Positions 35,909-63,359 of a stretch of 64,000 bases of DNA are shown here, piece by piece. The notes beneath the pieces were generated by a model. It saw only the letters and a list, made by a program, of their open reading frames with translations, was not told the origin of the DNA and ran no database searches. Location of the stretch: positions 74,437 to 138,436 of the forward strand of contig CAYZYT010000002.1 of the NCBI GenBank assembly GCA_964482725.1, written 5' to 3'. Within the stretch, counting starts at the first letter, position 1. Each line of letters opens with the position of its first letter. A program made the position numbers and the translations under genes. The DNA comes from an uncultured bacterium (GTDB lineage: Bacteria > Omnitrophota > Omnitrophia > Omnitrophales > Aquincolibacteriaceae).

Positions 35909-37174
35909 TCAGGGCTTGTCAAGAAGTGCGGCCACACCCGGCAACACTTTACCTTCCACAAGCTCAAGCGATGCCCCGCCGCCTGTGGAAATATGAGAGA
36001 TCTTCGGCCCCACACCGGATTTATTCACCGCAGCGACCGAGTCCCCGCCTCCGATAACGGTCACGCAATCCGGAAGTTCCGAGATCGCTTTCGCGATGGC
36101 CATGGTGCCGTTGGCGAATCTTGGGAATTCGAATACGCCGACCGGGCCGTTCCAGAAAACTGTCTTGGCGCCCTTGAGAGCACCCTTGAATTTGTCGACC
36201 GTGAGCGGACCGATATCCATCCCCATTTGATCGGAATCAATATTCCCGCGGGCGACATGTTCTGAGGGTGCGTCTGCCGAGAACTCCTTCGTGACAATAT
36301 GATCGATCGGAAGGTAAATATAAATATGGGTTTCATAGGCTTTTTGGAGGATTTGCCGGGCCGTATCGAGCATATCATCTTCCACAAGCGAGGCTCCGAC
36401 CGAAAGCCCCTTCGCCTTGAGGAACGTGTAGGCCATACCGCCGCCCACAATGAGACGGTCGACTCTCCCGAGCAGGCTTTCCAGTACCGCGATCTTGGAC
36501 GAAACTTTAGCGCCGCCAATAATCGCGACAAAAGGACGCGCGGGATTATTGACGATTTTATCGACAAGATAGTCCAGTTCTTTTTCCATCAGGAATCCTG
36601 CGACCGCCGGCAAATATTTCGCGACCGTTTCAGTCGAAGCATGAGCGCGATGCGCGGAGCCAAAGGCGTCGTTGACAAAGATATCGCCATACTGCGCCAG
36701 CGCTTTGGCCAACACGTCACGTTCTGCCACGTCCTTGGAAGTTTCTTCTTTATGAAAACGGGTATTCTCGAGCATCAAAATGCCGCCCGGAGGGATCGCC
36801 TTGACCATCGCTTCGGTTTCGGGCCCCATGCAGGCGGGAGCGAGCTTTACTTCTTTCCCGAGAAGCTGGGCCAGTTTCGCGGCGACCGGCGCCATCTTGA
36901 ATTTACCCTCCATGAATTTTTTCTCATCGAACGGCTTACCGTCCTTGTCCGCTTTTTCCTTGGCTTTTTGCGTGTCCTTCTTGGGATCCCCGAGATGGGA
37001 CATCAAGACCAGGCTCTTCGCGCCCTGATCAAGCACATACTTGATCGTGGGTAAGGCAGCCTTAATACGGGTATCATCCTGCACAACCCCGTCTTTCATC
37101 GGCACGTTAAAATCCACGCGCATGAGGATTCGCTTTCCGCGGACATCAATATCTCTGACTGTTTTCTTCTTCAT
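35909..37174 (-). CDS. pgk: Phosphoglycerate kinase
   Basis: 421 aa; RVDFNVP...; [12 protein letters not shown] at the C-terminus. Confidence 0.96.
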
Positions 37175-37240: not shown

Positions 37241-37243
37241 TTC

Positions 37244-38405
<1,162 letters not shown>

Positions 38406-40546: not shown

Positions 40547-41563
40547 TCAGGAATCCCTTTCTTGGAGTATCGCGCCCACAACGAAGCGCCTTCCCCGGGA
40601 AAAATCGGCAGCGGTCATGGCATTTTTTCCTTCGGGTTTAACTTTAAGGATCTTGAGGATGCCTTTTTGAGTTGCGACCTGGATGCCACCGTCTTTTTCT
40701 ATCGCAAGAAGTGTTCCGGGTTTTTCTCCTTCGTCCTCCTGAACCGCTTGGAGGGGAAGGATCTCCCCTTGCGGCCTCTCCGATTCTTCGCCTTGCTCAG
40801 AATGACGAAGCGAAGGAAGATCCGTTTCAAGGATCGCGATCCGTTCATTTTTTATGAAACAATAAGCCCCCGGCCAGGGTTGAAGTCCGCGGACTTTTCG
40901 GTCCATGGCTTCGGCGGTCATGGTGGTCAACGAAAGTTCCCCGTCCTGCTTGGAAAGCTGGGGGGCGAGCGTAGCTTCCGATTCATTTTGCGGGATGCCC
41001 CGAAGCTTTCCCTCCTGGACTTCTGTGAGGACTTTTTTGAGGAGCCCATAAGAAAAACGAGCCAGCTCCGAGGTGAGCTGGACGGCATCGGTTCGAGGAT
41101 CGATCGAGATCCTCTCCTGGCAATAAATGTCACCGCTATCAAGCTTCTCGGCAACATCGATGATGCTCACGCCGGTCTCCCTGTCCCCGTTCAGGATCGG
41201 CCAGTGGATCGGCGCCGCGCCGCGATATTTCGGTAAAAGCGACGGGTGAACATTCAGACGATATTTTGGGATCTCAAGTAAATGGCCCGGAATGAGTTTT
41301 CCGTACGAAGCCACGACAAAAATGTCAGGCCGTAAGGCGAGCAAATCGATGGACACCTTAGCGTCGCGGAGCTTCGGATATTCGATGACGGGAAGCTTTT
41401 TTGTTTGGCAATAATCAAAGATCTCGCTCGACTCCAGCTTGAGGCCGCGCCCTTTCTTTTGGGGAGGCGTGGTGATAACAAGCGCGAGCTCCATGCCGGA
41501 ATGCAGACAGGCTTCAAGCGCTTTGACCGAGAACGCGTCGGATCCGAAAAAGACGATCTTCAC
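40547..41563 (-). CDS. fmt: Methionyl-tRNA formyltransferase
   Basis: KIVFFGSDAFSVKALEACLHSG...VITTPPQKKGRG...; the HPSLLPKYRGAAPI motif. A probable GTG start at 41563 is followed directly by the conserved (M)KIVFFG N-terminus. The preceding roughly 45 aa of the ORF track is low-complexity and probably not translated. Confidence 0.83.
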   Translation of the reverse strand: MKIVFFGSDAFSVKALEACLHSGMELALVITTPPQKKGRGLKLESSEIFDYCQTKKLPVIEYPKLRDAKVSIDLLALRPDIFVVASYGKLIPGHLLEIPKYRLNVHPSLLPKYRGAAPIHWPILNGDRETGVSIIDVAEKLDSGDIYCQERISIDPRTDAVQLTSELARFSYGLLKKVLTEVQEGKLRGIPQNESEATLAPQLSKQDGELSLTTMTAEAMDRKVRGLQPWPGAYCFIKNERIAILETDLPSLRHSEQGEESERPQGEILPLQAVQEDEGEKPGTLLAIEKDGGIQVATQKGILKILKVKPEGKNAMTAADFSRGRRFVVGAILQERDS

Positions 41564-41657
41564 GATAAGGCCATGCGTAAATTCGAAATAAATTTCAACG
41601 TTTGAAACATTCGCATTGGAGTCATTGGAATTTCGTTCCGGGTTTCGAGATTCGGAT

Positions 41658-42173
41658 TTAGAGTTTCGATGTGCCCCTGGCAGTGATGGCCGATTCATAT
41701 TGCGCGAGAAGCTTTTCGCGCTTGGCGCCTTTAAAGTGATCGATCAGAAGGATCCCGTTCAGATGGTCCATTTCGTGCTGGATAACGCGGGCAAAAAAAT
41801 CCTCGACCTCGACCGTGTATTTTTTTCCGTAACGGTCCTGAAAAGTTAGCCGGAGCTGGGTCGCGCGGACGATCTCGCCCGAGATACCGGGAAAGCTCAA
41901 GCAACCTTCGGCCGCGACCGAGGTCCCTGACTTTTTTTCGATCACGGCATTCACCATGATATGTTCTTCGCCGTGGCGCAAGGTCGGGCAGGCGATGAAT
42001 ATTTGCTGGGAGATCCCGATCTGGGGCGCGGCGAGGCCCACACCGTCGGACGCATGCATGGTCGTGATCATGTCGTCAAATAGCTTCTGCATCGCAGGCC
42101 CGAAATCGGTCGCCGGAGCCGCTTTTTTCTTAAGGACAGGATCGGGATAAGTTCGTATCTTAAGCTTCGCCAT
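41658..42173 (-). CDS. def: Peptide deformylase
   Basis: 171 aa; GVGLAAPQIG, EGCLSFPG and QHEMDHLNG motifs. Confidence 0.93.
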   Translation of the reverse strand: MAKLKIRTYPDPVLKKKAAPATDFGPAMQKLFDDMITTMHASDGVGLAAPQIGISQQIFIACPTLRHGEEHIMVNAVIEKKSGTSVAAEGCLSFPGISGEIVRATQLRLTFQDRYGKKYTVEVEDFFARVIQHEMDHLNGILLIDHFKGAKREKLLAQYESAITARGTSKL

Positions 42174-43885: not shown

Positions 43886-43964
43886 TGGACCAGAGACTGG
43901 AGACCAGAGACAGGGCTGGCGTTTTCGGCTTCGACTGTAGTCTCTAGGCTGTGGTCTGTGGTCC
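43886..43964. repeat. Long imperfect hairpin built from CAGAGAC/GTCTCTG-type heptamer repeats (same simple-repeat family as inside the giant ORF)
   Basis: GGACCAGAGACTGGAGACCAGAGACAG ... CTGTAGTCTCTAGGCTGTGGTCTGTGGTCC. Confidence 0.5.
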
Positions 43965-53000: not shown

Positions 53001-56000
53001 CAGGATTCCGGGCACGCGAACGCCTTGTTCGTGCGCTCTGACGGCTATGGAAATCACGAATTTGGCTTTTTTCTCATTATCCGAACCGTATTTCAAAACA
53101 AATTGCCCTGTGGGCGATGTGATCAGCAGGGGCTCCCGCATCAGTGTGCCACCGGGAAGCTTTTTGATTTCTAACTGCTGGGGCGCTGTGACACCCAGGT
53201 CATAGTTTTGAAGCATCGTATCGATCAGCGAATCCGTAGTGACAGGAGCGCTCTGACCTTGCCACCGCTGATAATTTTTGATCACCGATGACGGCTGACG
53301 CCAAAGAGGAACGGTGGGACTCGTGGTAACATTCGCAGCCGTCTCCCGCACTTCGGAGCGGATCGTAATCGCATCGCCGATCTCATGGCTCAACACCCCT
53401 TTATCTGCCAGGATCTTTAACCCGGCTTGAACCAATTTCTCAAAAACCAGAATATCGACAGCAGACTTTACCTCAGCAAACAAGGGGACATCCTCGGTCC
53501 CACCCGTCCGAGAAAGAATGGAGAACTCCCTCAAGCTGAGGTCGGCATTCGCATAACTCAGCGGCTCTTTTCTCTCGACCCCCTCACGCTCAAATCGCTG
53601 GCGAATACGTTTCTCCACGACGCCATGCCACATCCCGCTGATCTGCTCCCATTGAATCAATGGCTGTCCCGATTCTTTCTTTTCAACATACTCGTATGGA
53701 AGCAGCTTTGAAAAACTCAGCATCAGTTGCTCTTCCTGTTCCAGAGTCAGCTTCTCCAACCGCTGCTTCAACTGCGCCAAAGCCGTCGCATCCATATCGG
53801 AGATCTTCTGGACTTCAGGCCATGTGATCAAAGAGCGGCCTTCCACCTCAACACCCTCCGATACGGCATACAGCAAGGCGGCTTGATTGATGACATTAAT
53901 AAAAGTCGAGAATAAAGTGATGTCTTTATCCGCCAGAAAACCGTTCTTATTCTTTTCCTTGGAGATCGGAGTATCCACAATATCGGGTTGGCCGTTGACG
54001 GTCACATAGCCACCTCCGGCTTGCCCCAAGTTACGCCAATTTCCAATACCTACATGGGCAAGACTGTGCTTTGCCATGAAACCAAGCACCCGGTCAAATT
54101 GTTTTTGTCCCAATTGCGCGGTCGGACCGTCCGCTGAACGAAGGATCGAGTAAACTTCGCCCCGCATCAATCCTTGAATGAAGGCGAACATAAAACCCAT
54201 GCCATCCCCATGCCCCAGCACGCTCTCGGGTCTTTCCACGATTTGACCCTCTTTGACGACCCAGACGCGGCTAGTATTGAAGGCGATAGCATCCACGGGC
54301 ACTCGGGCAAGGTTCCCGTTGCGGGCGTTGCGCTCGAGGATCTCATAGGTCGCACCAAGGAAAGGCTTCCAGGTCCAGGGGCTAAGCGTATAGCCAAGAC
54401 GGACAGGGCTTCCATTCCCTGCTAATTTGATAAGATTATCCATGGCGAGTTTGACCCCCGTCCCGCCATCCGTATTCTGATTCCCGTACCAGAAAGCAGC
54501 GAGAGCCCGCGGAAGGTCCGTGGGGACATCGTCTGCATTCATCACGCCAGCATCGATCAACGGCTCCAAGGATGAAAACCAGCGAGTTGCCTTCCCCGCC
54601 GCCAGCAGAACTTCCCTGACTCCTCCACGCCCCGCGATATTCCTGCCGGTTTTCTCAAATTCAGCGAGATCGTTCATTTTGCCGTCCGCCACCCGCTGGA
54701 TCACATCTTCCGGGATATTCAGCGAAACAAGCCGCAAAGCGATCTCGTTCAGTTTAAGCGAAGCGGAAAGACCCAGTTGTTTTTGAATGTCCTCCAGAAA
54801 TGCCGAGCGGCTCAAAAGAAGCGCCTTCTTAAATTCCCAATTCAGCGCTGTCTTCAAAAGCAGTGTCACCGAAAGCAAAGCTTCCGCGAAATCGGAAACG
54901 ACCGCATGACTCACGGGCGTGCCGGCGGGAACAATGCCAAGCTCCTTAATGACATTGAGGACCAAAACAGGATCTTTTCTGAAATCATTCTCGAATTTAA
55001 CCAACGCGTTAAACCGAACCACGGGATCTTTTAACGCCTGCTTCGAATATTTTTCGATCAATCCCTCCAACTCATGGACATTGACCCCCCCGACCTTTTC
55101 AGGCAGGACCATTTGATCGGAAGCATCGAGAGTGAGCGGCAAACCCTCGATCAGTCTCTTTAATATCTGACGCGTCAAATATGTCGAGACGATCCTTTCG
55201 GGTGGATAAAGACTCCATACATCCGCGCGAAGGTCCTGCACCTCCAGTGCTCCAGCATCGTTATAACCGATCTGGGCAGTCTTCATCCGCTTCCCAAGAT
55301 TTTCAAAATTCACGGGATTACCGAATTCATTTTCCGTCACCTGACGGATCTCATCCATGCTCGGCTTCTCCAGTTCGTCCCCAATCTTGAACCAAAGCGA
55401 AGTGGTCCGGTCCGCCAGCGGATTCTCCTTAAGTTTCAGATCCGATAAGAACGGGATCGCGATCGCGGTCTGGATCCCTTTAAATATCTGCAAAAGCGCC
55501 AACTGCCGGTCGTGGACCGGCACATTCCGGCTCGTACGCTCCAACGCCTCGGCCGCGTCCAAAAATTTTGAAATATGTTCCAAAACCTCGCTCTTGACCG
55601 TGGGCCACTCCAAAACATTCATCTCCTGCAGCCTCTTCAGATCCGTGTCGAGCAAGGAAGCTCCTGCTTGCGCTGCAATCCGCACTTCCGAGCGGGATTC
55701 TTTGGCGGCCGAAGCCCCTGGTGCTAGCCACAGATCACCTTCACCCGCGCGCTGTCCTTCGCCCTTTGACCGCTGCCCGTTCTTCTGTTCCCCTCTCGCA
55801 TTACGGGCTTCCACCTGCCCGGCCAAAAGAATGATCCTCTCAAAAACCTTCCGGGCGGCAATATTTCGTTCATCTTCGTTACGGGACAAATCCAGTTCTT
55901 TTGCATATCGCGAAAGAATATCCACAAGATCCAGGTCGCCAGCGACATGGTACAGCGCCGATGACTCTTCGCCTTGCGTGCCCACTGTGGTTTGCATGAC

Positions 56001-59000
56001 CGAACCGAATCGGTCCATGATTCTCAGCCGTTCGGCAGGATCTGAAATCTTCCCAAAAGCTTCCCCGCCGAGGAATGCGCCCAACATCTGGAATAAATTG
56101 CCTCTCAGCGAAAAAGTGACCGGACCGGATACACTCTCCTGGGAATCCTCGTACTCACCGTGGTCAATAATATCCACCGCGATCTCAAAGAATTTATCGA
56201 GCACTTGTTTTCGCTCCGCAGAGCTCTTGATCTGACCGTATCCTTTACCGCTCAATAGCGAGTCGAGTGCGTCAAAAACGCGATAGCTGTATTTAGAGCC
56301 ATACCGATGCATGTCGAAGCGCAGTGAAGCGTCATAGCATTTCGCCAGGATCTGTTTTCGTTCTTCGAGCGCGCTTATCCGGCCAAACCCGCTCCCGGCA
56401 AACAATTGACTGAGTGAACCAAGCGCTTGCTGCGCCTCGTATTCCTCGGAAGACGATACGGCGAATCTACTAACAATATTTTCCACCTGCCGCCGCACCT
56501 CGGCTTGCTGGGCCGCATCCGCGATCGCCAGGAACCAGCCGTAATTTTCCAACACCATGCGAACCTCGGAGCGGGCGGCATCAGGAGCCAATTCACCATC
56601 GATCTTCAGAACATGGGTTTTTTGATCTTGATAAGTCCCGGCGAGAACATAACCGTTCCCGAGATCAAGAAGAGAACCGACCTCTCCTCCAAGCCGTTCC
56701 GCGAGGTCGGCGATCCACTCGATCCCCCCCGTAATAGCCCCCGAGCCGTCCTTCACGGTTTTCACAACATAGGTTTTGCCATTCAACCCGACGAGAACAT
56801 AACCATTTCCGAGATCAAGAAGAGAATCGACATCTCCTCCAAGCGGTCCCGCGAAAGTGTAAATCTTCTTAATCCCCGTAATAGCCCCCGAGCCGTCCTT
56901 TTCGGCTTTCAGAATATGGATTCTTGAATCATCCTCAGTTCCGGCGAGAACATAACCGTTCCCGAGATCAAGAAGAGACCAGACATATCCTCCAAGCGGT
57001 TCCTCGCGGGAGGAGAACCTCTCTATCCCCGTAATAGCCCCCGAGCCGTCCTTCACGGTTTTCAAAACATGGGTTTTACTATCCAGAGTCCCGGCGAGAA
57101 CATAACCGTTCCCGAGATCAAGAAGAGACGTGACACGTCCTCCAAGCGGTTCCGCGAGGGAGGAGATCTTTTCGATCCTCGTAATTGACCCCGAGCCGTC
57201 CTTCACGACTTTCAGAACATGGGTTTTTTGATCATCAAAAGTCCCGGCGAGAACATAACCGTTCCCGAGATCAAGAAGAGACCTGACATTTCCTCCAAGC
57301 GGTTCCGCGAGGGAGGAGATCTTTTCGATCCCCGTAATTGCCCCCGAGCCGTCCTTCACGGCTTTCAGAACATGGGTTTTTTGATCATCAAAAGTCCCGG
57401 CGAGAACATAACCGTTCCCGAGATCAAGAAGAGACCTGACATTTCCTCCAAGCGGTTCCGCGAGGGAGGAGATCTTTTCGATCCCCGTAATTGCCCCCGA
57501 GCCGTCCTTCACGGCTTTCAGAACATGGGTTTTTTGATCTTGATAAGTCCCGGCGAGAACATAACCGTTCCCGAGATCAAGAAGAGACAGGACCCCTCCT
57601 CCAAGCGGTTCCGCGAGGGAGGAGATGGACCTGACGCCGTCCACTTTTTGAAAACGCGATTTCGGAATCACGGCCCCGGGCTTTTTTGCGGCTTCCGCCG
57701 CATCCGAAGAGATCATATCCCCAGTGACCATGGCTTCGTTGCGGATCTCGGAGCGGGAGCCAAGCTGACTGGCGGCGAGCACGTGAGATAACAACGAATG
57801 CGCAAAAACCGAAGAGAGCGCCTGGCTGTTAACTTTCTCGGAACGGATCATGTCAAGTATGAGAGCACGGACATTGCGAGCCCAATCCTGGGTCGCAGCG
57901 GCACCGGTCACAGCAACGCGCTCAGCACGGCCGACGAGACCGAGAAGGGCGGGCATTTGGGAGGTTTCAATATCACGGCTTCCGAGGATCGAGCGGAGAT
58001 ACACTTCTCGATCGTTCTTGGAGACTTCATTAATACGGGGAGTGATCTGGACATAAGAGCAATGCTTGGATGCGGCGAGAGCCTTAAGGCCGTCGGCATG
58101 GAATCCGCCGGTCACGATCACGGCGCGTTGCTGCTTTTGCTCGCTCATTTTCGAGAGAGCATTACGAAACATGGCGTTTTCACGGACAATCGCGGTCTCG
58201 TAAAACTCGACCGCATTCGCGAAAACAGACTGGAGACTAGTGACTGGAGACTGAAGCACCTTGTTTTTAGTCTGTGGTCTCTGGTCTGTGGTCTGTAGTC
58301 CCGCCGCAAGCTCGTCGGGAGAAATACGGAAACTCTGAAGCTCAGCATATTCTTTCCTAGTCAATTCAAGACTAAATAGGCGCCTGAGCAAGTAGAGCTT
58401 GCGAGCGGCGGAAAGATACGCTTTCTCATCCGCCGTCTTGGCGAGTGCGGTCTCGATATTGTCTTTCAGCTTGATCGTTTCTTCCTGCAACCCCTTGCCC
58501 TGGAGTTCCTGCATTAGGATCGTCTGCTGGGCATAGAGCGTCCAGTTGGGCCATTGTTTCATTGAGAAATTCTTGGGAAGCTTCGCGAAGGCCATGTCAA
58601 AGGCCCGACGCACGACGGAATATCCGTCTGCGTCGCGGTTAACGGTTAACGATGAACGGTTAACGTTACGTTCAGCGCTGTTTCGTTCCCCGTTTCCCAA
58701 TGATTGTTCGTTCCCCGTTCCCCGTTCCCCGTTCCCCGATGCCGCCTCGAAGGCATGTATAATTTCCTTCGACATTCCAAGCTTCTTAAGCTCAGCAAGA
58801 AAAGAGGCCTGCTCCGCCGCCGCTTTATCCCGGTCAATTTTCGATCCGATCGCCACCAGGCGGTAGTACCGGATAAGGGACGGATACTGGTCCTGATAAA
58901 AGGCGTCCGAGAGGTCGAGCTTGAGGTGCTTCTTACTCCCCTCACCGAGGGCCTTGAGCCAGCCTTCGAAGGAAACGGTTCCCGAACCAAACGCCTCTTC

Positions 59001-59741
59001 CTGGCGGACGAGGTTCAGGAGATCTTTATTCAGCTTCGATGCGTAACGTTTGTCGATCGTGGCCCGCAAAGAGCCCAGGAACTTCTCCGCGGTTTTTTCC
59101 TTCTTCACGACGCTGATAAATGCTTCACGGTCTTTTTTGTACGAATCGAGGTCTTCCACGCCGAACGCCGCCATGCCGGCGGCGCGTTTCGCGGGGAACG
59201 TGGAACGTGGAACGTTTGCGTTAACCGTTTCCCGTTTCCCGTTTCCCGGTAATTGTTCGTTCCCCGTTTCCCGTTCCCCGATTTTTTGATTTATCAAAAA
59301 ATTCTCCGGCCCCGTCAAATACCCTTCCTGCATCAGCTTATCCGTGACCTTCTGATTGAATGCGGGATTCTCGGGAAAAAGTCGGAAGAGTTCCGGCTGG
59401 AGCTTCGCAGCAGCGCCTTCAAGAAGCATTAATTTGACGGATGAATTCTTCTCGATATAACCGAGGAGTTTCTCAATGTTTTTTTCAGCCTGATAATTCC
59501 CGTGCGCAGATTGAATATGAATGAAGGCCGGAGCTTTCGGATCACCCTTAAGGGTATCTGTCACCTGGCCGAGTTCGGCCGGGATCGAGAGCATTCCGGC
59601 GGGCAATGAAGACACCTCCGGATTGAGCGTGGGCACACCCGTGGCAGCGAATGCATTCGGGCTGATCTGGAGGCTGGTAATAAAGAAGGTAAAAACGACG
59701 GTGGAGGCGATTAACTTCATGCTGGGATGGCGTTGGCTCAT
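44091..59741 (-). CDS. Giant open reading frame (5216 codons, single frame, no stop). It is a mosaic: signal peptide; 8 x 51-aa tandem repeats; UDPGP-like nucleotidyltransferase motif; APH/choline-kinase-like kinase; HD domain; TM + HEAT repeats; duplicated lipoprotein-like module. It may be a true giant gene, or several genes bridged by stop-free simple repeats.
   Basis: Uninterrupted frame from ATG 59741 (AAGGA RBS, MKLIASTVVFTFFITSLQISPNAFAA signal) to TAA 44091, followed by a terminator. Recognisable motifs all lie in this one frame: HGDVKMGNVLWNE...LLDWE (APH Brenner motif), VLGHGDGMGF (UDPGP), VLFHDIGIGKK...HEDIGAAA (HD), HEAT/PBS-lyase repeats VRALGELNDPRIVPAL. See the findings for caveats. 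Confidence 0.5.
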   Translation of the reverse strand: MSQRHPSMKLIASTVVFTFFITSLQISPNAFAATGVPTLNPEVSSLPAGMLSIPAELGQVTDTLKGDPKAPAFIHIQSAHGNYQAEKNIEKLLGYIEKNSSVKLMLLEGAAAKLQPELFRLFPENPAFNQKVTDKLMQEGYLTGPENFLINQKIGERETGNEQLPGNGKRETVNANVPRSTFPAKRAAGMAAFGVEDLDSYKKDREAFISVVKKEKTAEKFLGSLRATIDKRYASKLNKDLLNLVRQEEAFGSGTVSFEGWLKALGEGSKKHLKLDLSDAFYQDQYPSLIRYYRLVAIGSKIDRDKAAAEQASFLAELKKLGMSKEIIHAFEAASGNGERGTGNEQSLGNGERNSAERNVNRSSLTVNRDADGYSVVRRAFDMAFAKLPKNFSMKQWPNWTLYAQQTILMQELQGKGLQEETIKLKDNIETALAKTADEKAYLSAARKLYLLRRLFSLELTRKEYAELQSFRISPDELAAGLQTTDQRPQTKNKVLQSPVTSLQSVFANAVEFYETAIVRENAMFRNALSKMSEQKQQRAVIVTGGFHADGLKALAASKHCSYVQITPRINEVSKNDREVYLRSILGSRDIETSQMPALLGLVGRAERVAVTGAAATQDWARNVRALILDMIRSEKVNSQALSSVFAHSLLSHVLAASQLGSRSEIRNEAMVTGDMISSDAAEAAKKPGAVIPKSRFQKVDGVRSISSLAEPLGGGVLSLLDLGNGYVLAGTYQDQKTHVLKAVKDGSGAITGIEKISSLAEPLGGNVRSLLDLGNGYVLAGTFDDQKTHVLKAVKDGSGAITGIEKISSLAEPLGGNVRSLLDLGNGYVLAGTFDDQKTHVLKVVKDGSGSITRIEKISSLAEPLGGRVTSLLDLGNGYVLAGTLDSKTHVLKTVKDGSGAITGIERFSSREEPLGGYVWSLLDLGNGYVLAGTEDDSRIHILKAEKDGSGAITGIKKIYTFAGPLGGDVDSLLDLGNGYVLVGLNGKTYVVKTVKDGSGAITGGIEWIADLAERLGGEVGSLLDLGNGYVLAGTYQDQKTHVLKIDGELAPDAARSEVRMVLENYGWFLAIADAAQQAEVRRQVENIVSRFAVSSSEEYEAQQALGSLSQLFAGSGFGRISALEERKQILAKCYDASLRFDMHRYGSKYSYRVFDALDSLLSGKGYGQIKSSAERKQVLDKFFEIAVDIIDHGEYEDSQESVSGPVTFSLRGNLFQMLGAFLGGEAFGKISDPAERLRIMDRFGSVMQTTVGTQGEESSALYHVAGDLDLVDILSRYAKELDLSRNEDERNIAARKVFERIILLAGQVEARNARGEQKNGQRSKGEGQRAGEGDLWLAPGASAAKESRSEVRIAAQAGASLLDTDLKRLQEMNVLEWPTVKSEVLEHISKFLDAAEALERTSRNVPVHDRQLALLQIFKGIQTAIAIPFLSDLKLKENPLADRTTSLWFKIGDELEKPSMDEIRQVTENEFGNPVNFENLGKRMKTAQIGYNDAGALEVQDLRADVWSLYPPERIVSTYLTRQILKRLIEGLPLTLDASDQMVLPEKVGGVNVHELEGLIEKYSKQALKDPVVRFNALVKFENDFRKDPVLVLNVIKELGIVPAGTPVSHAVVSDFAEALLSVTLLLKTALNWEFKKALLLSRSAFLEDIQKQLGLSASLKLNEIALRLVSLNIPEDVIQRVADGKMNDLAEFEKTGRNIAGRGGVREVLLAAGKATRWFSSLEPLIDAGVMNADDVPTDLPRALAAFWYGNQNTDGGTGVKLAMDNLIKLAGNGSPVRLGYTLSPWTWKPFLGATYEILERNARNGNLARVPVDAIAFNTSRVWVVKEGQIVERPESVLGHGDGMGFMFAFIQGLMRGEVYSILRSADGPTAQLGQKQFDRVLGFMAKHSLAHVGIGNWRNLGQAGGGYVTVNGQPDIVDTPISKEKNKNGFLADKDITLFSTFINVINQAALLYAVSEGVEVEGRSLITWPEVQKISDMDATALAQLKQRLEKLTLEQEEQLMLSFSKLLPYEYVEKKESGQPLIQWEQISGMWHGVVEKRIRQRFEREGVERKEPLSYANADLSLREFSILSRTGGTEDVPLFAEVKSAVDILVFEKLVQAGLKILADKGVLSHEIGDAITIRSEVRETAANVTTSPTVPLWRQPSSVIKNYQRWQGQSAPVTTDSLIDTMLQNYDLGVTAPQQLEIKKLPGGTLMREPLLITSPTGQFVLKYGSDNEKKAKFVISIAVRAHEQGVRVPGILKNRKGEYLVEAGGLYYYVEQFIPGGRTIAYEDAQPRHFEQLGKVIAQLHNALSGFTPEGEKHERLAIDITTAEGDLRALKNTLEQNPGRNSRGEKLFREHADFILAEIEVLKTKLSLEQYHSLPSVAVHGDVKMGNVLWNESGSDVKALLDWERSREGQARIEDFKNVFSSAAGFSRLRVRAYDRENLKALLSGYQQEIAQKLTAEELDAIPSLLGPGAFLWDLARLFVSFGDTLNTSDDRYGIAVESIKKLQSIDNDFQGAWWKSFKQELLQTSIAKRSEVQGTQTTDYRLQTTDSSVERGTGNEKLGVNRSSLTVNRGVRRALMLFGAAAVMGLAGCEQGGSSDNDAEESQPTDSPAVTSDGNGSGSSEPAVPSAEEASFLAARSSASAMNSFILSYIAARGYAEGREGWSEGVAPWYSGPANGNRSYGEFTREFSDANLAKLVTYGQLIRVVSPSGTAAVGASVLKTGIAKRAEVRAEEKKAGADTFGNLVSLPWVLNGVLLPGKTPDFHTELLGEIRSAKTVADLEGARFSGSIEEKEQKTKIFQTAFSRISSENLLVRDMYFSQGQGPGKIKAIRFGRNINMTNNVAAKADPLWVAGGYDPAGEAMVLAESVLGAGKLASDGAVAGAGLFTRGLLYQGALQAFLSLRPTKGKGVSEELFLTEQVFVLMNVLDYMVGQNGTFETMRKDYLPLMEKNAVFHPSVRILIEKYSKDHLDPKESLKALREYVGTLYGKVQAPVVDMEALIELFGAMGDHYLSIGDYKNATHAFVKALAYDDAMDSDSTRRKELTLKLENAVNLFHKNLPADKRGTFVAQWLSAKENLDGFWRALNDVTLLSELAFVPEATVTTSSRYDQLKTTYDILSHLEAYSSRREDSRKIQEFFDGRRAMDIQPGKLHTESVRKLIDAYGVVETNDYTDKKSQPLKKILWLTAFLQHYARLFQNDEATDSWKILPQFLKVFSNLFNDEEKDLVYSLVTLQRNFSTLHFGEGSPTSLRESVDNMFKQRKSVEEQQNEGPSAQKEQGIDPVEQKESEMEKIYIDRSHPDFARKEVPEKLREALDFEGPGTLVNRLERLFDNGTMAAWFPRFGRGIPKKDVSGNRILKNVFTKYEDTSVSEHTLELVGYLEMIEKGQFDEFNKKKQGIKFTREQFELYRNAFQEIIRYGTGGDKAKEAQRRVLFYLAVLFHDIGIGKKANFHEDIGAAAIREQQIFETMGYPAEDAKEVFWLVKFHVELGTVEYGERTTYNLLTSLKEQLAGLPDAGQTRYLRTLAFLNSLDVLATQKGEPMSVDKLHFFINVLTDDNFIANFEKGFFEWRMRKFSSNRQSSYFKAVYDEVQAELKKLEDQSPKEYKNFRDFYSKAEEARTLDYAIFFLQSLEPGALVRLLFFLSQAVEQARKADEFKDIHRINFTAASGAAPLSKEAVEVMFSSKQLGSYRSISQLTKKPFADIVKEMKTLGLKIERTTSNGQQAFVFDNGRLSNRYRYFKIAALQSATYVLSRNVRVATDIHIKNFAFMQELSKSSYFVNIEKYWPVVRLVDAFMGNGKEAISVEHAWEEYSDPNLLRATEEKIKHLATTDPKKAHEVAQVLSELNDIKRQGDLDGFTHFMETVNFRNAIFNFRKLKATDPRSVVRLLYMLYLAGHDVNIINFFVAADRVEPDTKYAGVYNRILQGLADHNIKAIKQLSKNKDPFRAFSRMLGLAKDGITLNKSVVQNVLTVNYEPPRAASHRASRAELRSKQTTDYRLQTTDSSVERGTGNEKLGVNRSSLTVNRGVRRALMLFGAAAVMGLAGCEQGGSSDNDAEESQPTDSPAVTSDGNGSGSSEPAVPSAEEASFLAARSSASAMNSFILSYIAARGYAEGREGWSEGVAPWYSGPANGNRSYGEFTREFSDANLAKLVTYGQLIRVVSPSGTAAVGASVLKTGIAKRAEVRGTQTTDYRLQTPVKASSLQSPVSRLLSTAFLAGTVRAELLGDQKRNLMLGTIYPFLPSVALLGVAAVAVYFGLNWEGVPFTQEPSLISGSGLFLGLLGGEGAQYDRAEYMRASEEQEARDSRSSSDISYPLVINETRADEKQFQKALSNLQPKWWDGTFLGVPIVNNQGGADRRVVAVRALGELNDPRIVPALNIALHDTAKVVRLAAVSALRGHKSIPGIVTAFNDAEVDVRLAAIAALVDLNAQEELGKAIPEIVKALTLEDKESRAVAISALRAINALSELGKQLNNEYPDVRRAAVTALGDTKDVNAVPALVESLKDRSISDAVAAALVKIGDPRSSEALTSYKEQLAREAAERLERERQAAEASPSSSDDDKDRGYWEGIGPGNRSEVRLDRSAAGVPGTAQVDAVLAIRAELSEPYQAVQEVMKAARLKWHSMDGQHWTVERGWETVATDVSGLIKKVLPQLTTLEEILASGARVHGIFREDWGLEASYVFSSVEKLYADRIVKIAPKELKSLTTTEKVYASWVRVAGVSTGIALSEPVEALYASRIQETERLKSFTTTEEVLASLERVRKILGGSALSYPVTVLYIERIGEIAPEELKAFTIPEEVNAAWFRLKGFLPGLPKDSFFGVRSSATSPVRRLYADRFQALENLEKERSKRADGLRSRWESLSGQVIGKFLSGQALDAKLRLQLDEIRTEIASRLAELHDRLNGLDGNALGIDEMPSQDERLRKIDQESRRVADEIAMLDLLQGEITARSEVRTYETPVIPLVPGVDTTSLTAKVGTAIRVAANTVSPLLSSSTAYASEIAPLVFAGTVHYQAAPVVPPAFATRWPVFNEIISHFATASTGRMVIDQRQGVPDAASVLPLVTFALYNPKDGVVLALIAEASEVALFEKELSALNLKGVLPQNFKVQAFASENEFVGAFAEFYNAAAPVGKPVALITDRQDSVVTRKIGSRKQLLSVVGARDPLKQTASALLAADKLLNEAIWSMGYHFVSVEKLGGLEALMAELTSYIAAQVRVKASA
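47190..47768. repeat. Copy B of the 578-bp segmental duplication, ending in [GGTTAAC]n [CGTTCCC]n [TCTGTAG]n heptamer tracts
   Basis: See copy A; the heptamer blocks lie at 47643-47768. Confidence 0.85.
51569..52145. repeat. Copy A of a near-exact 578-bp segmental duplication inside the giant ORF (copy B at 47190-47768)
   Basis: The plus-strand shadow ORFs 47437-47757 and 51814-52134 are identical over 106 aa. Flanks diverge after a few mismatches at the 5' edge. Offset about 4378 bp. Confidence 0.85.
56570..57650. repeat. Tandem array of eight 153-bp (51-aa) repeats inside the giant ORF (SSLAEPLGGxVxSLLDLGNGYVLAGTxxDxKTHVLKxVKDGSGAITGIEKI)
   Basis: The unit ...GCGAGAACATAACCGTTCCCGAGATCAAGAAGAGA... 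recurs every 153 bp (for example at 57400 and 57553) with high nucleotide identity. Confidence 0.75.
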
Positions 59742-59946: not shown

Positions 59947-62598
59947 CTATAGAATATTGAGGGGATCGACGTCGAGCTGGAAGGCAACGCCGGAGGGTTT
60001 TTTGAGGCCCATCAGAAGCGCATAGATCTTGGGCGTCATCAGAAGGTCTTTGGGGATCTTAAGCATGACATGCCAGCGGAAGTGACCGCGCAATTTGTAG
60101 AACGGAAGCGGCGCGGGGCCGATAATTTCAAAACCTTCGGGAGCTGGATGTCGGATGGCGGAGGGCGTAAAGCCTTCGGTTTGAGATCCGGCTAACAATC
60201 TATCTTTGTCATTCCCGCATGCTTTTAGCGGGAATCCATTTTTTGTTACTGGATCCCCGATTGAGACATTCGGGGATGACAAGGAGATAGCCAGACCCCT
60301 GAGCGCATCGCGGATCTCGCGCGCAAAGAGATACGCCTTCTTCTCATCGTGCGAGCGGATAATGATATTCACAAGCGAGCGGAACGGCGGATAATGAAAT
60401 TCCTCCCGGCACTGTTTTTCATGCGCGTAAAAGGCGAGGAAATCATGCTCGCGCGCGAACCGGATACTGGGATGCTCCGGCATCCAGGTCTGAATGATGA
60501 CACGGCCGGGCTTCGTCCCCCGCCCCGCGCGCCCCGCAAATTGCGTGAGCAGCTGGAATGTCCGCTCGCTAGAACGAAAATCCGGAAGCCGGAGCCCCAC
60601 ATCGGCGAGCACCACGCCCACCAAAGTCACATGCGGGAAGTCAAATCCCTTGGCGATCATCTGCGTTCCAATCAGGATGTCGATCTTTTGCTCCCGGAAC
60701 TCCTCCAGGATCTTTTCGTGGGAATTTTTTTTCTGAGTGGTATCCGCATCAAGGCGCGCGATCCGGGCCGTCGGAAAAAACCGGGCGACCTCGCTTTCGA
60801 CCTTTTCGGTCCCGAAGCCCGCAAACTTCAGGAGCGGGGACTTGCACGAAGAGCAGGTGTTCGACACTTTTTTTTGATAGTTACAGTAATGACAAAGGAG
60901 CAGGTTCTTTTCTTGATGAAAGGTGAGCGCCACCTGGCACATCTTGCAGGTTTCGACCTCACTGCAGGTCGGACAGCGGATCGAAGTAGAAAATCCTCGG
61001 CGATTCAGGAGAAGCATCGTCCCTTCCCGGCTCTTTAGATTGGTCTCGATCTCGCGCATGAGGGGCGGCGAAAAAAGGAGACTTGCGCGCTTGTCCCCCT
61101 GATAGCGTTTGAGGTCGATCACCTGGACCTTGGGCATCGCCTTCGAATCGATCCTCTCGGTGAGATCCACGCGTTCGATCCTCCCCCTCTCCGCGAGCGC
61201 CATGCTTTCCAGAGAGGGCGTCGCCGTCCCCATCAAAAAAAGCGCTCCCTCATGTTCCGCGCGCCAGGCAGCCACTTCGCGAGCGTGGTAGCGAGGCGTG
61301 GTCTCCTGTTTATACGAACCCTCATGTTCCTCGTCCATGATAATGAGCCCGAGGTTCGGGACCGGAGCGAACACCGCGGAGCGCGGGCCCAACACCACAT
61401 TGCAGGTTCCCAGCTCGATGCGTTTCCAGGTAAGAAACCGTTCCCCATCGGTCATTTTGCTGTGAAGGATCTCGAGGTTCTCGCCGAAATGCCCGGCAAA
61501 GAAGCGCTGAAGCTGTTCGGTCAGCGCGATCTCGGGGACAAGGCAGATCGCGGCACGGCCCTGCTTCAGGGTCTGGCGGATCGCGCGGATATAAAGTTCG
61601 CTCTTGCCGCTCCCGGTGACACCGTAGATTAAAATCGGTTTTACGGATTTTTTTTCGTCATCCTGAGGCTTAGCCGAAGGATCTCGCTTGAGATTCTTCG
61701 CCCCCGAGGGGCTCAGCACTGACCTTGCTAAAATCTCAGGGGGGTCGGTGCAGTCCCGCCTACCGTCTTTTATTAATTCAAGGCGGGGCAGAATGACTGA
61801 ATTCGCCAACACTTTCTGGATAATCTCAAACGCCTTCTCCTGCTCAGGAGAAAGCGTGTATTCCTGAGGAGAGTGCGCCGACGCATCGCTTTTCCGACTT
61901 GCTTTCTCGATGTACTTCTCAACTTTTTTCCCGTACTTCACCCATCGCGGGAGCGCGTTCTCGATCGCCTCTCCCCAGCTCGAACCGTAATATTCGCCCA
62001 CCCATTTTGTAAGCGCAAGCATATCCGCCGAGAGAACGGGCTGGTCATCGAGGACCGCGAGAAGGGGTTTGAGATCGCCAAGCCGCTTGTCATTCCCGCG
62101 GACTTTTAGCGGGAATCCAGTTTTTGCGTCTGGACCCCCGATTAAAACATTCGGGGGTGACAAAATTTTCCTTTTCGGGAGTCCTCCTTTTTCAAAGGGG
62201 GAAGAAAACTCATCCTGTTTCGCTTCCACCCCAACGATATAGCCCGTGATCTCGGTGTTGCGGAACGGGACGATCACACGAACGCCGGGGATGGCTTTCG
62301 CAAGAAGAGACTCGGGGATCCTATAACTGAAGACGGTGGGGATCGGAAGAGGAACCGCTACCTGCGCCACAAAAGACTTTATGTCATTCCCGCATGTTTT
62401 AAGCGGGAATCCAGTCTTGTTTTCTGGATCCCCGACACAAACATTCGGGGATGACAGGGACAACGCGAGCGGCTGTCCCCTTTTGGACGATTTCACTCCT
62501 TCGTCCCTTCGAGGAGCTTCATGACTTTTTTCATATCCTCCCAGACCTTGCGCTTCTCCCCCGGGCTGCGCAAAAGATACGCCGGATGGTAGGTGCAC
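59947..62598 (-). CDS. priA: Primosomal protein N' (PriA helicase) carrying in-frame R1/R2 repeat insertions; start codon uncertain
   Basis: N-terminal VAVPLPIPTVFSYRIP...VIVPFRNTEITGYIVGV, Walker A GVTGSGKSELY, DEEHE, and the Cys-rich zinc-finger region CPTCSEVETCKMC...CHYCNYQ...CSSC. Three R1 copies (60207-60281, 62088-62162, 62383-62456) and one R2 copy (61657-61723) are in frame. The 5' 100 bp would overlap UDG, so the true start is probably downstream, near 62370. Confidence 0.85.
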   Translation of the reverse strand: MHLPSGVSFAQPGGEAQGLGGYEKSHEAPRRDEGVKSSKRGQPLALSLSSPNVCVGDPENKTGFPLKTCGNDIKSFVAQVAVPLPIPTVFSYRIPESLLAKAIPGVRVIVPFRNTEITGYIVGVEAKQDEFSSPFEKGGLPKRKILSPPNVLIGGPDAKTGFPLKVRGNDKRLGDLKPLLAVLDDQPVLSADMLALTKWVGEYYGSSWGEAIENALPRWVKYGKKVEKYIEKASRKSDASAHSPQEYTLSPEQEKAFEIIQKVLANSVILPRLELIKDGRRDCTDPPEILARSVLSPSGAKNLKRDPSAKPQDDEKKSVKPILIYGVTGSGKSELYIRAIRQTLKQGRAAICLVPEIALTEQLQRFFAGHFGENLEILHSKMTDGERFLTWKRIELGTCNVVLGPRSAVFAPVPNLGLIIMDEEHEGSYKQETTPRYHAREVAAWRAEHEGALFLMGTATPSLESMALAERGRIERVDLTERIDSKAMPKVQVIDLKRYQGDKRASLLFSPPLMREIETNLKSREGTMLLLNRRGFSTSIRCPTCSEVETCKMCQVALTFHQEKNLLLCHYCNYQKKVSNTCSSCKSPLLKFAGFGTEKVESEVARFFPTARIARLDADTTQKKNSHEKILEEFREQKIDILIGTQMIAKGFDFPHVTLVGVVLADVGLRLPDFRSSERTFQLLTQFAGRAGRGTKPGRVIIQTWMPEHPSIRFAREHDFLAFYAHEKQCREEFHYPPFRSLVNIIIRSHDEKKAYLFAREIRDALRGLAISLSSPNVSIGDPVTKNGFPLKACGNDKDRLLAGSQTEGFTPSAIRHPAPEGFEIIGPAPLPFYKLRGHFRWHVMLKIPKDLLMTPKIYALLMGLKKPSGVAFQLDVDPLNIL
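60207..60281. repeat. R1 palindromic element, copy 1 (inside the priA C-terminal region, in frame)
   Basis: TGTCATTCCCGCATGCTTTTAGCGGGAATCCATTTTTTGTTACTGGATCCCCGATTGAGACATTCGGGGATGACA. It has two internal hairpins (TTCCCGC/GCGGGAA; CCCCGA/TCGGGG) and outer TGTCAT/ATGACA ends. Confidence 0.8.
61657..61723. repeat. R2 element (inverted dimer) inside priA, in frame, between the LSPEQ region and Walker A
   Basis: GTCATCCTGAGGCTTAGCCGAAGGATCTCGCTTGAGATTCTTCGCCCCCGAGGGGCTCAGCACTGAC. It encodes ...SVLSPSGAKNLKRDPSAKPQDD... Confidence 0.7.
62088..62162. repeat. R1 palindromic element, copy 2 (inside priA, between the N-terminal DNA-binding domain and the helicase core, in frame)
   Basis: TGTCATTCCCGCGGACTTTTAGCGGGAATCCAGTTTTTGCGTCTGGACCCCCGATTAAAACATTCGGGGGTGACA. 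Confidence 0.8.
62383..62456. repeat. R1 palindromic element, copy 3 (priA 5' region, either in the N-terminus or the leader)
   Basis: TGTCATTCCCGCATGTTTTAAGCGGGAATCCAGTCTTGTTTTCTGGATCCCCGACACAAACATTCGGGGATGACA. Confidence 0.8.
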
Positions 62599-63359
62599 AT
62601 GACCGGGATGCCCTCATAAGACTGGAACGTCCCCCGAAGTCCCGAGATGCCCTCCTCGGTTTGGAGAAGCGCTTTGACCGCATGATTGCCGAGCGCCACG
62701 ATCACCTTGGGTTGAATGATCTTGAGCTGCTCTTTGAGGTAAGGCCGGCAGTGAGCGACTTCTCCCGGCGCAGGCGGACGATTATTCGGCGGCCGGCATT
62801 TGAGGACGTTGCAAATAAAGACCTGATCACGGGTCCAGCCCATGGCTTCAATGATCTTCGTGAGGAGCTGACCGGCGCGGCCGACAAAAGGAAGTCCCTG
62901 CTCGTCTTCATCGGCGCCCGGGGCTTCCCCCACAAAAACAAGCTCGGCCTGGAGATTGCCGTCGCCAAAGACGACCTTGTTGCGGGTCTTCGCGAGTTCG
63001 GCGCAGAGTTTGCATTTCAGGACTTTGGCTCGAAGTGATTCGATCCCAGGATTGCTTTCCGCCGAAGCCTTGTCATTCCCGCATGCTTTACGCGGGAATC
63101 CACTTTTTGTTGCTGGACCCCCGACTAAAACATTCGGGGGTGACACAATTTGTCGACTTGAGGATTGCATCACGGAACTCGAAGACTTGAATGTTGCTTT
63201 GTCATCCTGAGCCGATTTTCGGCGAAGGATCTCGCTTTGAGATTCTTCGCCCTTCGGGCTCAGAATGACGGGAGCGAAAGATTTCTTCGGCACATACACT
63301 TCTTCAATGCCGTCTTCTTTCAAGGCTTTCAGGAATAAAAGAGACTCGCGCTTCGGCAT
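62493..63359 (-). CDS. Uracil-DNA glycosylase, family 4; about 105 N-terminal codons are repeat-derived (R2 + R1), so the true start may be internal
   Basis: Core motifs C(K/R)LC...VFGEGN-like ([21 protein letters not shown]) and [23 protein letters not shown], then HPAYLLR. The N-terminal 105 aa has no UDG homology and spans two repeat elements. Confidence 0.75.
63071..63145. repeat. R1 palindromic element, copy 4 (within the 5' part of the UDG ORF)
   Basis: TGTCATTCCCGCATGCTTTACGCGGGAATCCACTTTTTGTTGCTGGACCCCCGACTAAAACATTCGGGGGTGACA. Confidence 0.8.
63200..63269. repeat. R2 element (inverted dimer) in the 5' part of the UDG ORF
   Basis: TGTCATCCTGAGCCGATTTTCGGCGAAGGATCTCGCTTTGAGATTCTTCGCCCTTCGGGCTCAGAATGAC. 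The arms are reverse complements of each other. Confidence 0.7.

Follow-up and report, generated by a model that had tools for sequence, protein, structure and literature searches.

How does an essential gene come to hold several palindromic repeats and remain a single uninterrupted reading frame? The question is raised by priA, the gene of primosomal protein N', on a stretch of 64,000 nucleotides from an uncultured bacterium of the Omnitrophota (GenBank assembly GCA_964482725.1, contig CAYZYT010000002.1, positions 74,437 to 138,436), the whole of which is called the window below. Together with its neighbour udg, priA carries in frame a 75-bp palindromic repeat, termed R1, as well as a second repeat, R2, and several smaller blocks. 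An earlier note on this DNA had claimed that the repeats leave priA intact, in the manner of the Rickettsia palindromic elements (RPEs), and this was borne out: dispersed palindromes lie in frame in a functional, conserved gene, most orthologues of which, among the Omnitrophota, have empty sites. We consider it probable that priA took in palindromic repeats at four permissive positions, and that R1 is a gene-less derivative of the SRM-ssn-SRM arrangement, in which hairpins of the Ssn-related motif (SRM) flank the gene of a small GIY-YIG nuclease, Ssn. Loci and proteins used for comparison are given by L and P numbers, P0001 being the PriA of the window.

59947..62598, minus strand: priA open reading frame (ORF), 883 codons from the first GTG (62598), uninterrupted
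GTG 62496, minus strand: probable real start of priA, giving 849 aa (NCBI call, P0001); alternative GTG 62370, directly before the conserved AQVAVPLP

The PriA domains follow one another in the order stated earlier, as was found both with Pfam (PriA_3primeBD, DEAD/ResIII, Zn_ribbon_PriA, Helicase_C, PriA_C) and with solved structures, among which PriA of K. pneumoniae was the best match of the ORF (E = 6e-115), with E. coli PriA at a similar E value. The canonical PriA layout is thus present, i.e., the 3' DNA-binding domain (3'BD), the winged helix (WH), the helicase lobes with the Cys-rich Zn region and the C-terminal domain; Walker A, DEEH, the four CxxC and all catalytic motifs are invariant in the columns of a 77-sequence alignment. 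Almost all named proteins among the 120 best relatives of P0001 are primosomal protein N' of metagenome-assembled genomes of Candidatus Omnitrophota/Omnitrophica; the nearest one is 80% identical, and most are just 680-720 aa long. Over 684 shared codons, compared with three orthologues, the ratio of non-synonymous to synonymous substitution rates (dN/dS) is 0.07-0.10, and in the columns found solely in the two insert-bearing genes it is 0.74. The priA of the window is a working gene under strong purifying selection.

As the window belongs to a metagenome-assembled genome, and repeats can mislead assemblers, one might suspect a pseudogene or a repeat-caused assembly artefact. Such an explanation is extremely improbable in view of the 883 uninterrupted codons, the invariant catalytic motifs and the low dN/dS of the gene body; moreover, the R1 copies, 80-88% identical to one another, differ too much for an assembler to merge them, and independent assemblies (L001, L002, L120 and L133) have these insertions at the same sites.

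Relatives begin priA at an ATG (MSEAHAVLAQV...), which is lost in the window, where the first conserved residues AQVAVPLP may be compared with the N-terminus MPVAHVALPVP of E. coli PriA. GTG 62496 overlaps the udg stop codon as GTGA and is preceded, 8-14 nt upstream, by the Shine-Dalgarno-like GAAGGGA; no such sequence was seen at GTG 62370.

The excess of PriA over its insertion-free orthologues amounts to about 165 aa (849 vs 684), more than the 100 to 150 aa estimated earlier, and it is covered wholly by four sites:

Site 1, N-terminal extension: R1
Site 2, 3'BD loop: R3-like block and R1
Site 3, WH-to-helicase linker: R2 and a 74-nt block of no assigned family
Site 4, linker before the C-terminal domain: R1

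The three R1 copies and one R2 copy that had been counted in the ORF are real; the count has to be amended in that one of these R1 copies belongs to the N-terminal extension or 5' leader, and in that the R3-like and the 74-nt blocks come in addition. Compared with PriA of K. pneumoniae, ORF residues 128-171 (44 aa) replace 3 residues of the 3'BD loop, residues 769-819 take the place of 4 in the linker preceding the C-terminal domain, and R2 falls within the poorly conserved linker between the winged helix and the helicase. In a 63-sequence alignment the sites are empty in most PriAs of the Omnitrophota, e.g., in P0008 (684 aa), P0013, P0016, P0021 and P0044, so the segments are not a conserved part of the protein among homologues. 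R1 is common to the window and P0002 at two sites and to the window and P0003/P0004 at one, an independent R1 stands in P0035 a few residues off the position found in the window, and other short repeat types fill the same loops in other Omnitrophota lineages. Alignment of DNA with three orthologous loci repeats this picture of empty and filled sites.

The placement in surface loops, proposed earlier as a point to be checked against homologues, agrees with an AlphaFold2 model of P0001 built on the 77 sequences (mean pLDDT 76.8, pTM 0.79), the folded core of which superposes on solved PriA structures with target-normalised TM scores of 0.71-0.85. Long coil segments with pLDDT below 50 are confined to residues 1-36, 97-135, 242-271 and 748-784, i.e., to the four insertion sites, and the domains between them reach pLDDT above 90. 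According to the model, the inserts fall in loops and linkers predicted to be disordered and solvent-exposed.

The R1 copies of the window are as follows:

60207..60281, plus strand: R1 copy 1, 75 bp, in the linker between helicase core and C-terminal domain; minus-strand reading LSSPNVSIGDPVTKNGFPLKACGND, ORF aa 773-797
62088..62162, plus strand: R1 copy 2, in the 3'BD loop; read as LSPPNVLIGGPDAKTGFPLKVRGND, ORF aa 146-170
62382..62456, plus strand: R1 copy 3, in the interval from the udg stop (62493) to the first conserved residue of PriA; read as LSSPNVCVGDPENKTGFPLKTCGND if the start is GTG 62496
63071..63145, plus strand: R1 copy 4, in udg; orthologous to copies in L001, L002 and L133, absent in L003

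The four copies match one another pairwise at 60-66 of 75 positions and share one orientation, one reading frame and the same segment lengths (12+9+10+12+11+9+12); they are translated as LSSPNVSIGDPVTKNGFPLKACGNDK and variants, in agreement with the repeat length of about 75 bp and the translations quoted before. They cluster within 2.94 kb (p ~3e-4 for four random sites), and the remaining 60 kb of the window hold no further copy. R1 is a quasi-palindrome of 75 bp (25 codons) made of two inverted GTCAT-hairpin arms, of which the one at the plus-strand 5' end is a canonical SRM arm in all four copies; its termini are TGTCAT...ATGACA, and the flanks lengthen the palindrome as Y|GTCAT..ATGAC|R. 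Folded as single-stranded DNA (ssDNA), the terminal stem TGTCAT/ATGACA closes three hairpins, with dG of -17 to -21 kcal/mol and z of -4.3 to -6.5 versus dinucleotide shuffles; hence the inverted termini described in the earlier note stand, and its two hairpins become three. In Rfam only one hit was obtained, in which the hairpin matched an miRNA by chance and below threshold (29 bits, the gathering score being 100). On the opposite strand, ORFs of 62-84 aa start within R1 copies (60206-60394, 62336-62524 and 62956-63210, plus strand; MSFPHAFSGNPFF..., ...MSFPHVLSGNPVL...).

Outside the window, R1 was sought in the GTDB representative genomes with a pattern of the left arm and half of the right arm. 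At least 119 matching stretches were obtained. Those listed span more than 20 phyla and include Omnitrophota, Patescibacteria, Binatia, Nitrospirota, Desulfobacterota, Zixibacteria, Calditrichota, Elusimicrobiota and Coxiellaceae, besides Rhodoferax, Janthinobacterium, Iodobacter, Deefgea, Synechococcus and others, Neisseriales-like genera among them. In 103 R1 copies the variable base pair of the right-arm stem, the one stem position not fixed by the search pattern, is T-A in 63 and C-G in 40, with no mismatch. The stem pairing is kept by constraint on the nucleic acid, and because of this covarying pair the peptide alternates between SSPNV...GDP and SPPNV...GGP.

In the same 103 copies no target-site duplication was detected, direct repeats of 2-4 nt in the flanks (three offsets) being at chance level. 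This bears on the possibility that R1 and R2 are classic MITEs (miniature transposable elements with inverted repeats), i.e., deletion derivatives of insertion sequences (IS) moved by a DDE transposase via their terminal inverted repeats, in line with the earlier description of R1 as MITE-like. The elements are indeed short, have inverted termini (TGTCAT/ATGACA in R1, GTCATCCTGAGC/GCTCAGAATGAC in R2) and are dispersed in multiple copies and both orientations across genomes, and in-frame intragenic MITEs have been documented. Against such an origin, besides the missing duplication, no transposase adjoins any R1-type copy in the ~1 Mb of loci examined, where the recurrent neighbour is instead a 97-aa GIY-YIG protein flanked by the same hairpins; furthermore, the conserved units are subterminal hairpins with covarying stems, as in the single-strand systems that recognise hairpins. 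As regards possible vectors, none of 2.9 million viral contigs matched the R1 pattern, and blastn against plasmids found nothing. We regard a transposase-driven MITE as improbable; of the earlier description the inverted termini are retained, and R1 is more aptly termed an inverted dimer of Ssn-related hairpins lacking a target duplication rather than a MITE-like element.

The nuclease in question became known from Neisseria, where the dRS3 repeat is a part of the 28-nt NTS (CGTCATTCCCGCGMAVGCGGGAATCYRG), which the 94-aa GIY-YIG protein SsnA binds and cuts in ssDNA (PMC11893778). The ssn genes encode single-domain GIY-YIG proteins of ~94 aa (cd10448), typically in the order SRM-ssn-SRM; SRM hairpins flank them in many phyla, and NTS-ssnA-NTS was compared by the authors to IS and to REP-RAYT (PMC11893778). 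With the published SRM pattern (HGTCWY-N0-2-YYVSBRH-N0-5-WNVSBRG-N0-2-RNCYNB) we obtained exactly 4 hits in the window, one per R1 copy and always at its left arm; shuffled sequences gave 0.4 on average. The Neisseria NTS 27-mer occurs verbatim in 33 R1-type copies at 32 loci, and it is present in the R1 copy in the 3'BD of priA in the P0003 lineage (L120). Besides, 97-aa single-domain GIY-YIG ORFs (PF01541, E ~1e-17) were found at 6 of 119 loci, within a few kb of the double hairpin:

L006, 7260-7550, minus strand: small GIY-YIG ORF, ~97 aa
L038, 5764-6057, plus strand: small GIY-YIG ORF, ~97 aa
L072, 5662-5952, plus strand: small GIY-YIG ORF, ~97 aa
L099, 3478-3831: small GIY-YIG ORF
L046, 439-771: small GIY-YIG ORF
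L089, 6804-7028: small GIY-YIG ORF

At the first five of these loci GTCAT-hairpin half-sites lie within ~80 nt of the ORF, and at L089 a single half-site lies ~160 nt from the ssn-like ORF; in L038 the half-sites stand inverted to either side of the gene, exactly as the two arms do in R1. The hosts of the loci combining GIY-YIG ORF and half-site are Omnitrophota, Saccharibacteria, Dadabacteria, Rhodoferax, Comamonas and Calditrichota. The SRM hits, the verbatim NTS, the GIY-YIG neighbours and the inverted half-sites of L038 tie R1 to the Ssn system, and R1 looks like an SRM-ssn-SRM unit from which the gene is missing, its two Ssn target hairpins forming an inverted pair.

Only 16 of 99 full R1-type copies outside the window lie in long ORFs (p = 4e-52 against a coding density of 85%), compared with 7 of the 8 R1/R2 copies of the window (Fisher p = 6e-5); the ORF-based coding coverage of the window is ~92%, at which 7 of 8 is what unbiased placement would give. 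The copies are therefore not exclusively intergenic, and the ORF-embedded fraction does not differ significantly between Omnitrophota (5 of 17) and other phyla (11 of 82). ORF-embedded copies elsewhere occur in both orientations and in at least four frames (VIPAKAGIQ..., LSFPHAFSGNP..., SSPNV...GFPLKxCGND). Several hosts are real proteins, with domains on either side of the R1-type element: a leucyl-tRNA synthetase of Roizmanbacteria, where it lies between the catalytic and the anticodon-binding domains, a DUF3105 that is split, a protein of the ATP-grasp type, and giant proteins with HEAT or Ig-like domains. In L039 of the Omnitrophota (3649-5313, minus strand) an R1-type element stands between ABC ATPase and ABC-2 permease domains of one continuous ORF of 555 codons; the element may have joined two genes that are normally apart, or may merely keep an intergenic spacer open.

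These data also bear on whether the repeats represent a short peptide module selected for some role in PriA and UDG, the similarity of their DNA being secondary. The peptide SPxNVxIGxPxxKxGFPLKxxGNDK does recur in one frame, at four places of the window as well as in orthologues. Elsewhere the same DNA lies mostly between genes, and where it falls inside ORFs at least four frames and both orientations are used; the alternation of Ser/Asp and Pro/Gly is fully explained by the covarying base pair of the DNA; and the segments, predicted to be disordered and evolving at a dN/dS of 0.74, are missing from most PriA orthologues. A selected module is accordingly very improbable. A profile of the R1 peptide searched against an index of 5.8 billion proteins found only spurious ORFs below 91 aa and missed PriA itself; in an exhaustive search of 1.84 billion representatives 132 hits reached E<=1e-3, short ORFs for the most part, which makes a weak census, the profile having 32 positions, and the nine long hits of that search have almost no Pfam annotation. 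Many short 'hypothetical proteins' of the databases (e.g., P0122-P0174) are plain translations of intergenic R1-type repeats.

There is no evidence that the element is adapted for coding, and its in-frame state is best read as the outcome of a survivorship filter. In an essential gene, selection would let pass only those copies that add a multiple of three nucleotides, sit in the single frame that is free of stops in the given orientation and fall in surface loops or linkers, where the repeat would be read through as a disordered peptide rich in Pro, Gly, Asn and Asp. Such a filter would account for the single frame common to all copies in priA and udg, and for the hypervariability of the same three or four PriA loops across Omnitrophota.

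How copies may pass between strains is illustrated by L001 and L133, the latter being one of 17 loci from a strict-geometry R1 scan of metagenomes. The two carry the same udg-priA region and are 99-100% identical in every 100-nt interval except L001 701-1000, where the identity to L133 (reverse strand, ~1850-2150) drops to 88%, 86% and 55%. The diverged tract of ~280 nt starts where an R2-like copy in the udg-priA spacer ends, and it covers the first ~95 codons of priA; here the 3'BD loop is filled by a 63-bp R1 in L001 and is empty in L133. The pattern bears the signature of an allelic replacement by homologous recombination and not of a fresh transposition. It shows that, within one population, alleles of an essential domain with the repeat occur side by side with alleles lacking it and that they are exchanged, and the comparison suggests recombinational exchange of repeat-bearing gene segments within populations. 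A parallel may be seen in Neisseria, where genes adjacent to dRS3 are more diverse (PMC11893778).

Recombination of this kind could be all there is: the copies in priA, udg and fmt would be old and immobile, passed on by vertical descent and by homologous recombination or gene conversion, and the link to Ssn would reflect the control of transformation, as in Neisseria, and not transposition. In line with this, copies are orthologous across lineages whose proteins are just 74-80% identical, the C-terminal-linker copies of the window and L001 differ mainly in loops and spacer, and the only case of presence and absence within a population sits on the diverged 280-nt tract. The published function of Ssn is the cleavage of incoming ssDNA, and NTS repeats cluster around genes in Neisseria (PMC11893778); R1 likewise clusters around two genes. 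Recombination, however, cannot make the first copy at a new site. R1-type elements occupy non-homologous genes of different phyla (leucyl-tRNA synthetase, DUF3105, ATP-grasp, giant HEAT and Ig-like proteins), P0035 has its independent copy at a shifted position, and the R2 of udg is lineage-specific; from these facts it follows that some insertion process exists or existed. The udg gene itself is the following:

62493..63359, minus strand: udg, family-4-type uracil-DNA glycosylase, 288 aa against 222 aa in an insertion-free orthologue

Its conserved 25-aa N-terminus is followed by in-frame R1 and R2. Since L003 has neither repeat, L001, L002 and L133 have R1 only and the window has both, the inserts of udg were acquired stepwise. 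Immobility of all these copies is, in our judgement, unlikely.

We thus return to the insertion of hairpin elements as the preferred reading. R1 would spread along a hairpin-directed ssDNA route, with an Ssn-type nuclease acting in trans, and we infer that this genome encodes such a nuclease; copies once established would pass between strains through homologous recombination of the flanking gene segment, after which the filter described above would apply. Several points weigh against this reading. No ssn-like GIY-YIG gene lies within the 64-kb window, and the right arm of R1, having a variant stem and loop, fails the strict SRM pattern; R2 and R3 match no SRM pattern at all, nor was a GIY-YIG gene found beside R2 copies. 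The role published for Ssn in Neisseria is to restrict ssDNA taken up in transformation, and on IS the authors go no further than an analogy (PMC11893778). Among the compared loci there is no filled/empty pair with identical flanks, the sole polymorphism standing on a recombined tract. The multiple-of-three and stop-free check suggested in the earlier note turned out mixed: the R1 copies of priA and udg do share a frame, but element length modulo 3 shows no difference between ORF-embedded and other copies, and stop-free frames are only slightly enriched (2.65 vs 2.31 +/- 0.12). Translation through R1 copy 3, itself likely, depends on the predicted start GTG 62496, and the low pLDDT of the inserts may partly stem from their absence in most rows of the alignment.

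Compared with the published NTS/dRS3/SRM sequences (PMC11893778), R1 agrees in that its left arm fits the SRM pattern, with the GTCAT 5' flank and the GC-rich hairpin, and in its spread over many phyla, the small GIY-YIG genes flanked by hairpins at related loci and the clustering of copies around particular genes; in the window itself there is no ssn gene. R1 differs in being a fixed inverted dimer of two diverged arms that forms a 75-bp cloverleaf, and in the 9-nt loop of the copies in this genome, compared with 4 nt. It also lies in frame within coding sequence, whereas intragenic copies, MITEs, RPEs and the Wolbachia palindromic elements (WPEs) are not mentioned in PMC11893778, which does not discuss Omnitrophota and Patescibacteria as hosts either.

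With RPE-1 to -7 and the Wolbachia elements R1 has in common that in-frame palindromes occupy solvent-exposed positions of conserved housekeeping genes and that orthologues share the insertion sites. RPEs are 105-146 bp long and have been described as specific to Rickettsiales, whereas R1 has 75 bp and, among the matches listed, occurs in more than 20 phyla. In a study of Rickettsia japonica ATGAC (=GTCAT) was noted in the palindromes of RPE-4, -6, -7 and WPEs and was depleted in RPE-1, -2 and -3, which probably have another origin. Rickettsia and Wolbachia are among the genomes richest in SRM (PMC11893778). A family link of R1 to the ATGAC-type RPEs and WPEs is plausible from the shared ATGAC/GTCAT motif. 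We propose tentatively that R1-like hairpin pairs are the non-autonomous partners of a so far unrecognised class of elements with a GIY-YIG nuclease of ~95 aa, spreading as ssDNA across more than 20 phyla and leaving no target duplication, and that this class also covers the ATGAC-bearing RPE-4, -6, -7 and WPEs, a possibility to which we give less than even credence. In our literature search no paper was found that links Ssn/SRM with RPE/WPE, nor any report of such repeats in Omnitrophota.

The earlier opinion that in-frame palindromes are rarely documented outside Rickettsia has to be refined, as the Correia 107-bp element, ERIC, YPAL, QMITE1 and the WPEs are also found in frame. Correia 107-bp, ERIC/IRU, YPAL and QMITE1 resemble R1 as small non-autonomous elements with inverted ends, strong secondary structure and, sometimes, in-frame ORF fusions; unlike R1, they have target-site duplications (often TA) and IS-type terminal repeats. 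From MITEs with open frames R1 differs further in being accompanied, at related loci, by a gene of a GIY-YIG nuclease, not of a transposase. Repetitive extragenic palindromes (REP/BIME) with their RAYT transposases (IS200/IS605-like Y1) are like R1 in consisting of hairpins without target duplications, often in inverted pairs, in flanking a small 'domesticated' nuclease/transposase gene and in their presumed spread as ssDNA, and the same analogy was drawn by the authors of the Ssn study (PMC11893778). The enzyme is an HUH Y1 protein there and a GIY-YIG protein here; REPs have a 5' tetranucleotide of the GTAG type and are extragenic by definition, whereas R1 has GTCAT and is intragenic at this locus.

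Palindromes that are translated have been a Rickettsia curiosity for 25 years, with no enzyme known, and the partner of dRS3/NTS, SsnA, was recognised only in 2025. The locus described here joins the two lines, in that an Ssn-type hairpin pair lies in frame in priA and udg and, in other phyla, in leuS and other genes, and the phenomenon of in-frame palindromes is extended to candidate phyla. If Ssn nucleases do propagate such elements, these would be a new type of mobile DNA, and common spurious 'hypothetical proteins' of metagenomes (SFPHAFSGNP..., VIPAKAGIQ..., SPPNVxIGGP...GFPLKACGND) would be explained; the compact genomes of Omnitrophota and Patescibacteria would then be the place where the elements most often end inside essential genes. 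Should the ATGAC-type RPEs and WPEs share the system, a first candidate enzyme for those elements would be at hand. In practice, gene callers and protein-family models should expect disordered linker inserts of 20-50 aa in proteins of Omnitrophota and candidate phyla, and the inserts mark sites that are permissive for protein engineering.

The other repeats of the window are of different make. R2 is a long imperfect hairpin of 67-69 bp, built as GTCATCCTGAGC...GAAGGATCTC...GAGATTCTTC...GCTCAGAATGAC and unlike R1:

61657..61723, plus strand: R2 in priA, 67 bp, WH-to-helicase linker; GTCATCCTGAG..GAAGGATCTC..GAGATTCTTC..CTCAGCACTGAC, right end degenerate; read as VLSPSGAKNLKRDPSAKPQDD
63201..63269, plus strand: R2 in udg, specific to the window among the compared loci
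40733..40806, plus strand: R2 in fmt, in frame in a loop of the C-terminal domain; ~24 extra aa compared with L002
37196..37270, minus strand, opposite orientation: R2 in the 115-nt spacer between ORFs 35909..37174 and 37290..38363
61724..61797, plus strand: 74-nt block adjoining the R2 of priA, ending in an R2-type terminus (..GGCAGAATGAC)
62165..62203, minus strand: R3-like block of 39 nt (TTCCCCCTTTGAAAAAGGAGGACTCCCGAAAAGGAAAAT, read as SPFEKGGLPKRKI), directly 5' of R1 copy 2; a decayed copy
60142..60204, minus strand: extra linker sequence after R1 copy 1 (DRLLAGSQTEGFTPSAIRHPA), holding the recurrent SPSAI(R/H)HP

Of the eight R1/R2 copies in the window, just the R2 at 37196-37270 is clearly intergenic. 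An apparent duplication of 20-27 nt around the R2 of udg was no better than in shuffled sequences and was discarded. In the 2.9 million viral contigs R2 was found at 4 loci, none of them with a GIY-YIG gene, and a literature search with R2 sequence strings gave nothing relevant. The 74-nt block has no second copy in the window or in the compared loci; judging by its terminus, it may be a second R2-type unit, decayed or interrupted. The R3 family consists of TCCCCCTTT-N-AAAGGGGGA followed by AGGGGGATTTT, read as SPFIKGGKRGI...PLTPLCERGE. It lies in frame in the winged-helix linker of PriA in L001 (1270-1350) and L133 (1560-1640) and occurs also at L059 1623-1643 and L136 2003-2023, i.e., in Janthinobacterium and a metagenome contig; the R3-like block of the window is absent from L001 and L002, which have R1 at that 3'BD site. 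R2 and R3 are separate palindromic families that behave like R1 and would be served by analogous machinery. The motif SPSAI(R/H)HP recurs in other PriA linkers of the Omnitrophota, and heptad-like hairpin sequences (GNETFNVSRFPLA; GGRREEG...SAIHHPPS) fill the PriA linkers of L001, L002 and P0021.

Some features of the neighbouring genes may be added. The mechanically called ORF of fmt (40547-41698, minus strand, 383 aa) has an N-terminal extension of 45 residues missing from the orthologues, and translation probably begins in fact at the GTG that gives the V of VKIVFFGSD. Between priA and def/fmt a single ORF of 5216 aa extends over 44091-59741 (minus strand). In L001-L003 small genes (Ppnp, DUF4405 or DUF3313) come within ~1 kb after priA, with def-fmt next, and from this order it follows that the giant gene is an insertion relative to the synteny of the relatives. 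Pfam recognised in the giant ORF no more than HEAT repeats and a kinase domain of the APH type; the ORF contains an internal duplication, 98% identical and 4377 nt apart (47191-47490 and 51568-51867), and about seven tandem units of 150-153 nt (56600-57686). An R1-type element was also seen in a giant HEAT protein of L010. DNA with a period of 7 nt associated with the giant ORF was noted at 43928-43963, 47143-47178, 47731-47766, 52108-52157 and 58265-58300, as well as at 47663-47697, 52040-52074, 58631-58665 and 59180-59214; the runs are translated as low-complexity peptide, repeats of GTCTGTA/GTCTGTG being read as QTTDYRLQTTD, and those of CGGTTAA/CGATGAA as ..VNRSSLTVNR. These runs look like another class of small palindromic or periodic inserts in coding DNA of the Omnitrophota. 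Finally, the GC skew of the plus strand is negative in nearly every 4-kb bin and nearly all genes of the window are on the minus strand, which places the window on one replichore, with its genes co-oriented with replication.

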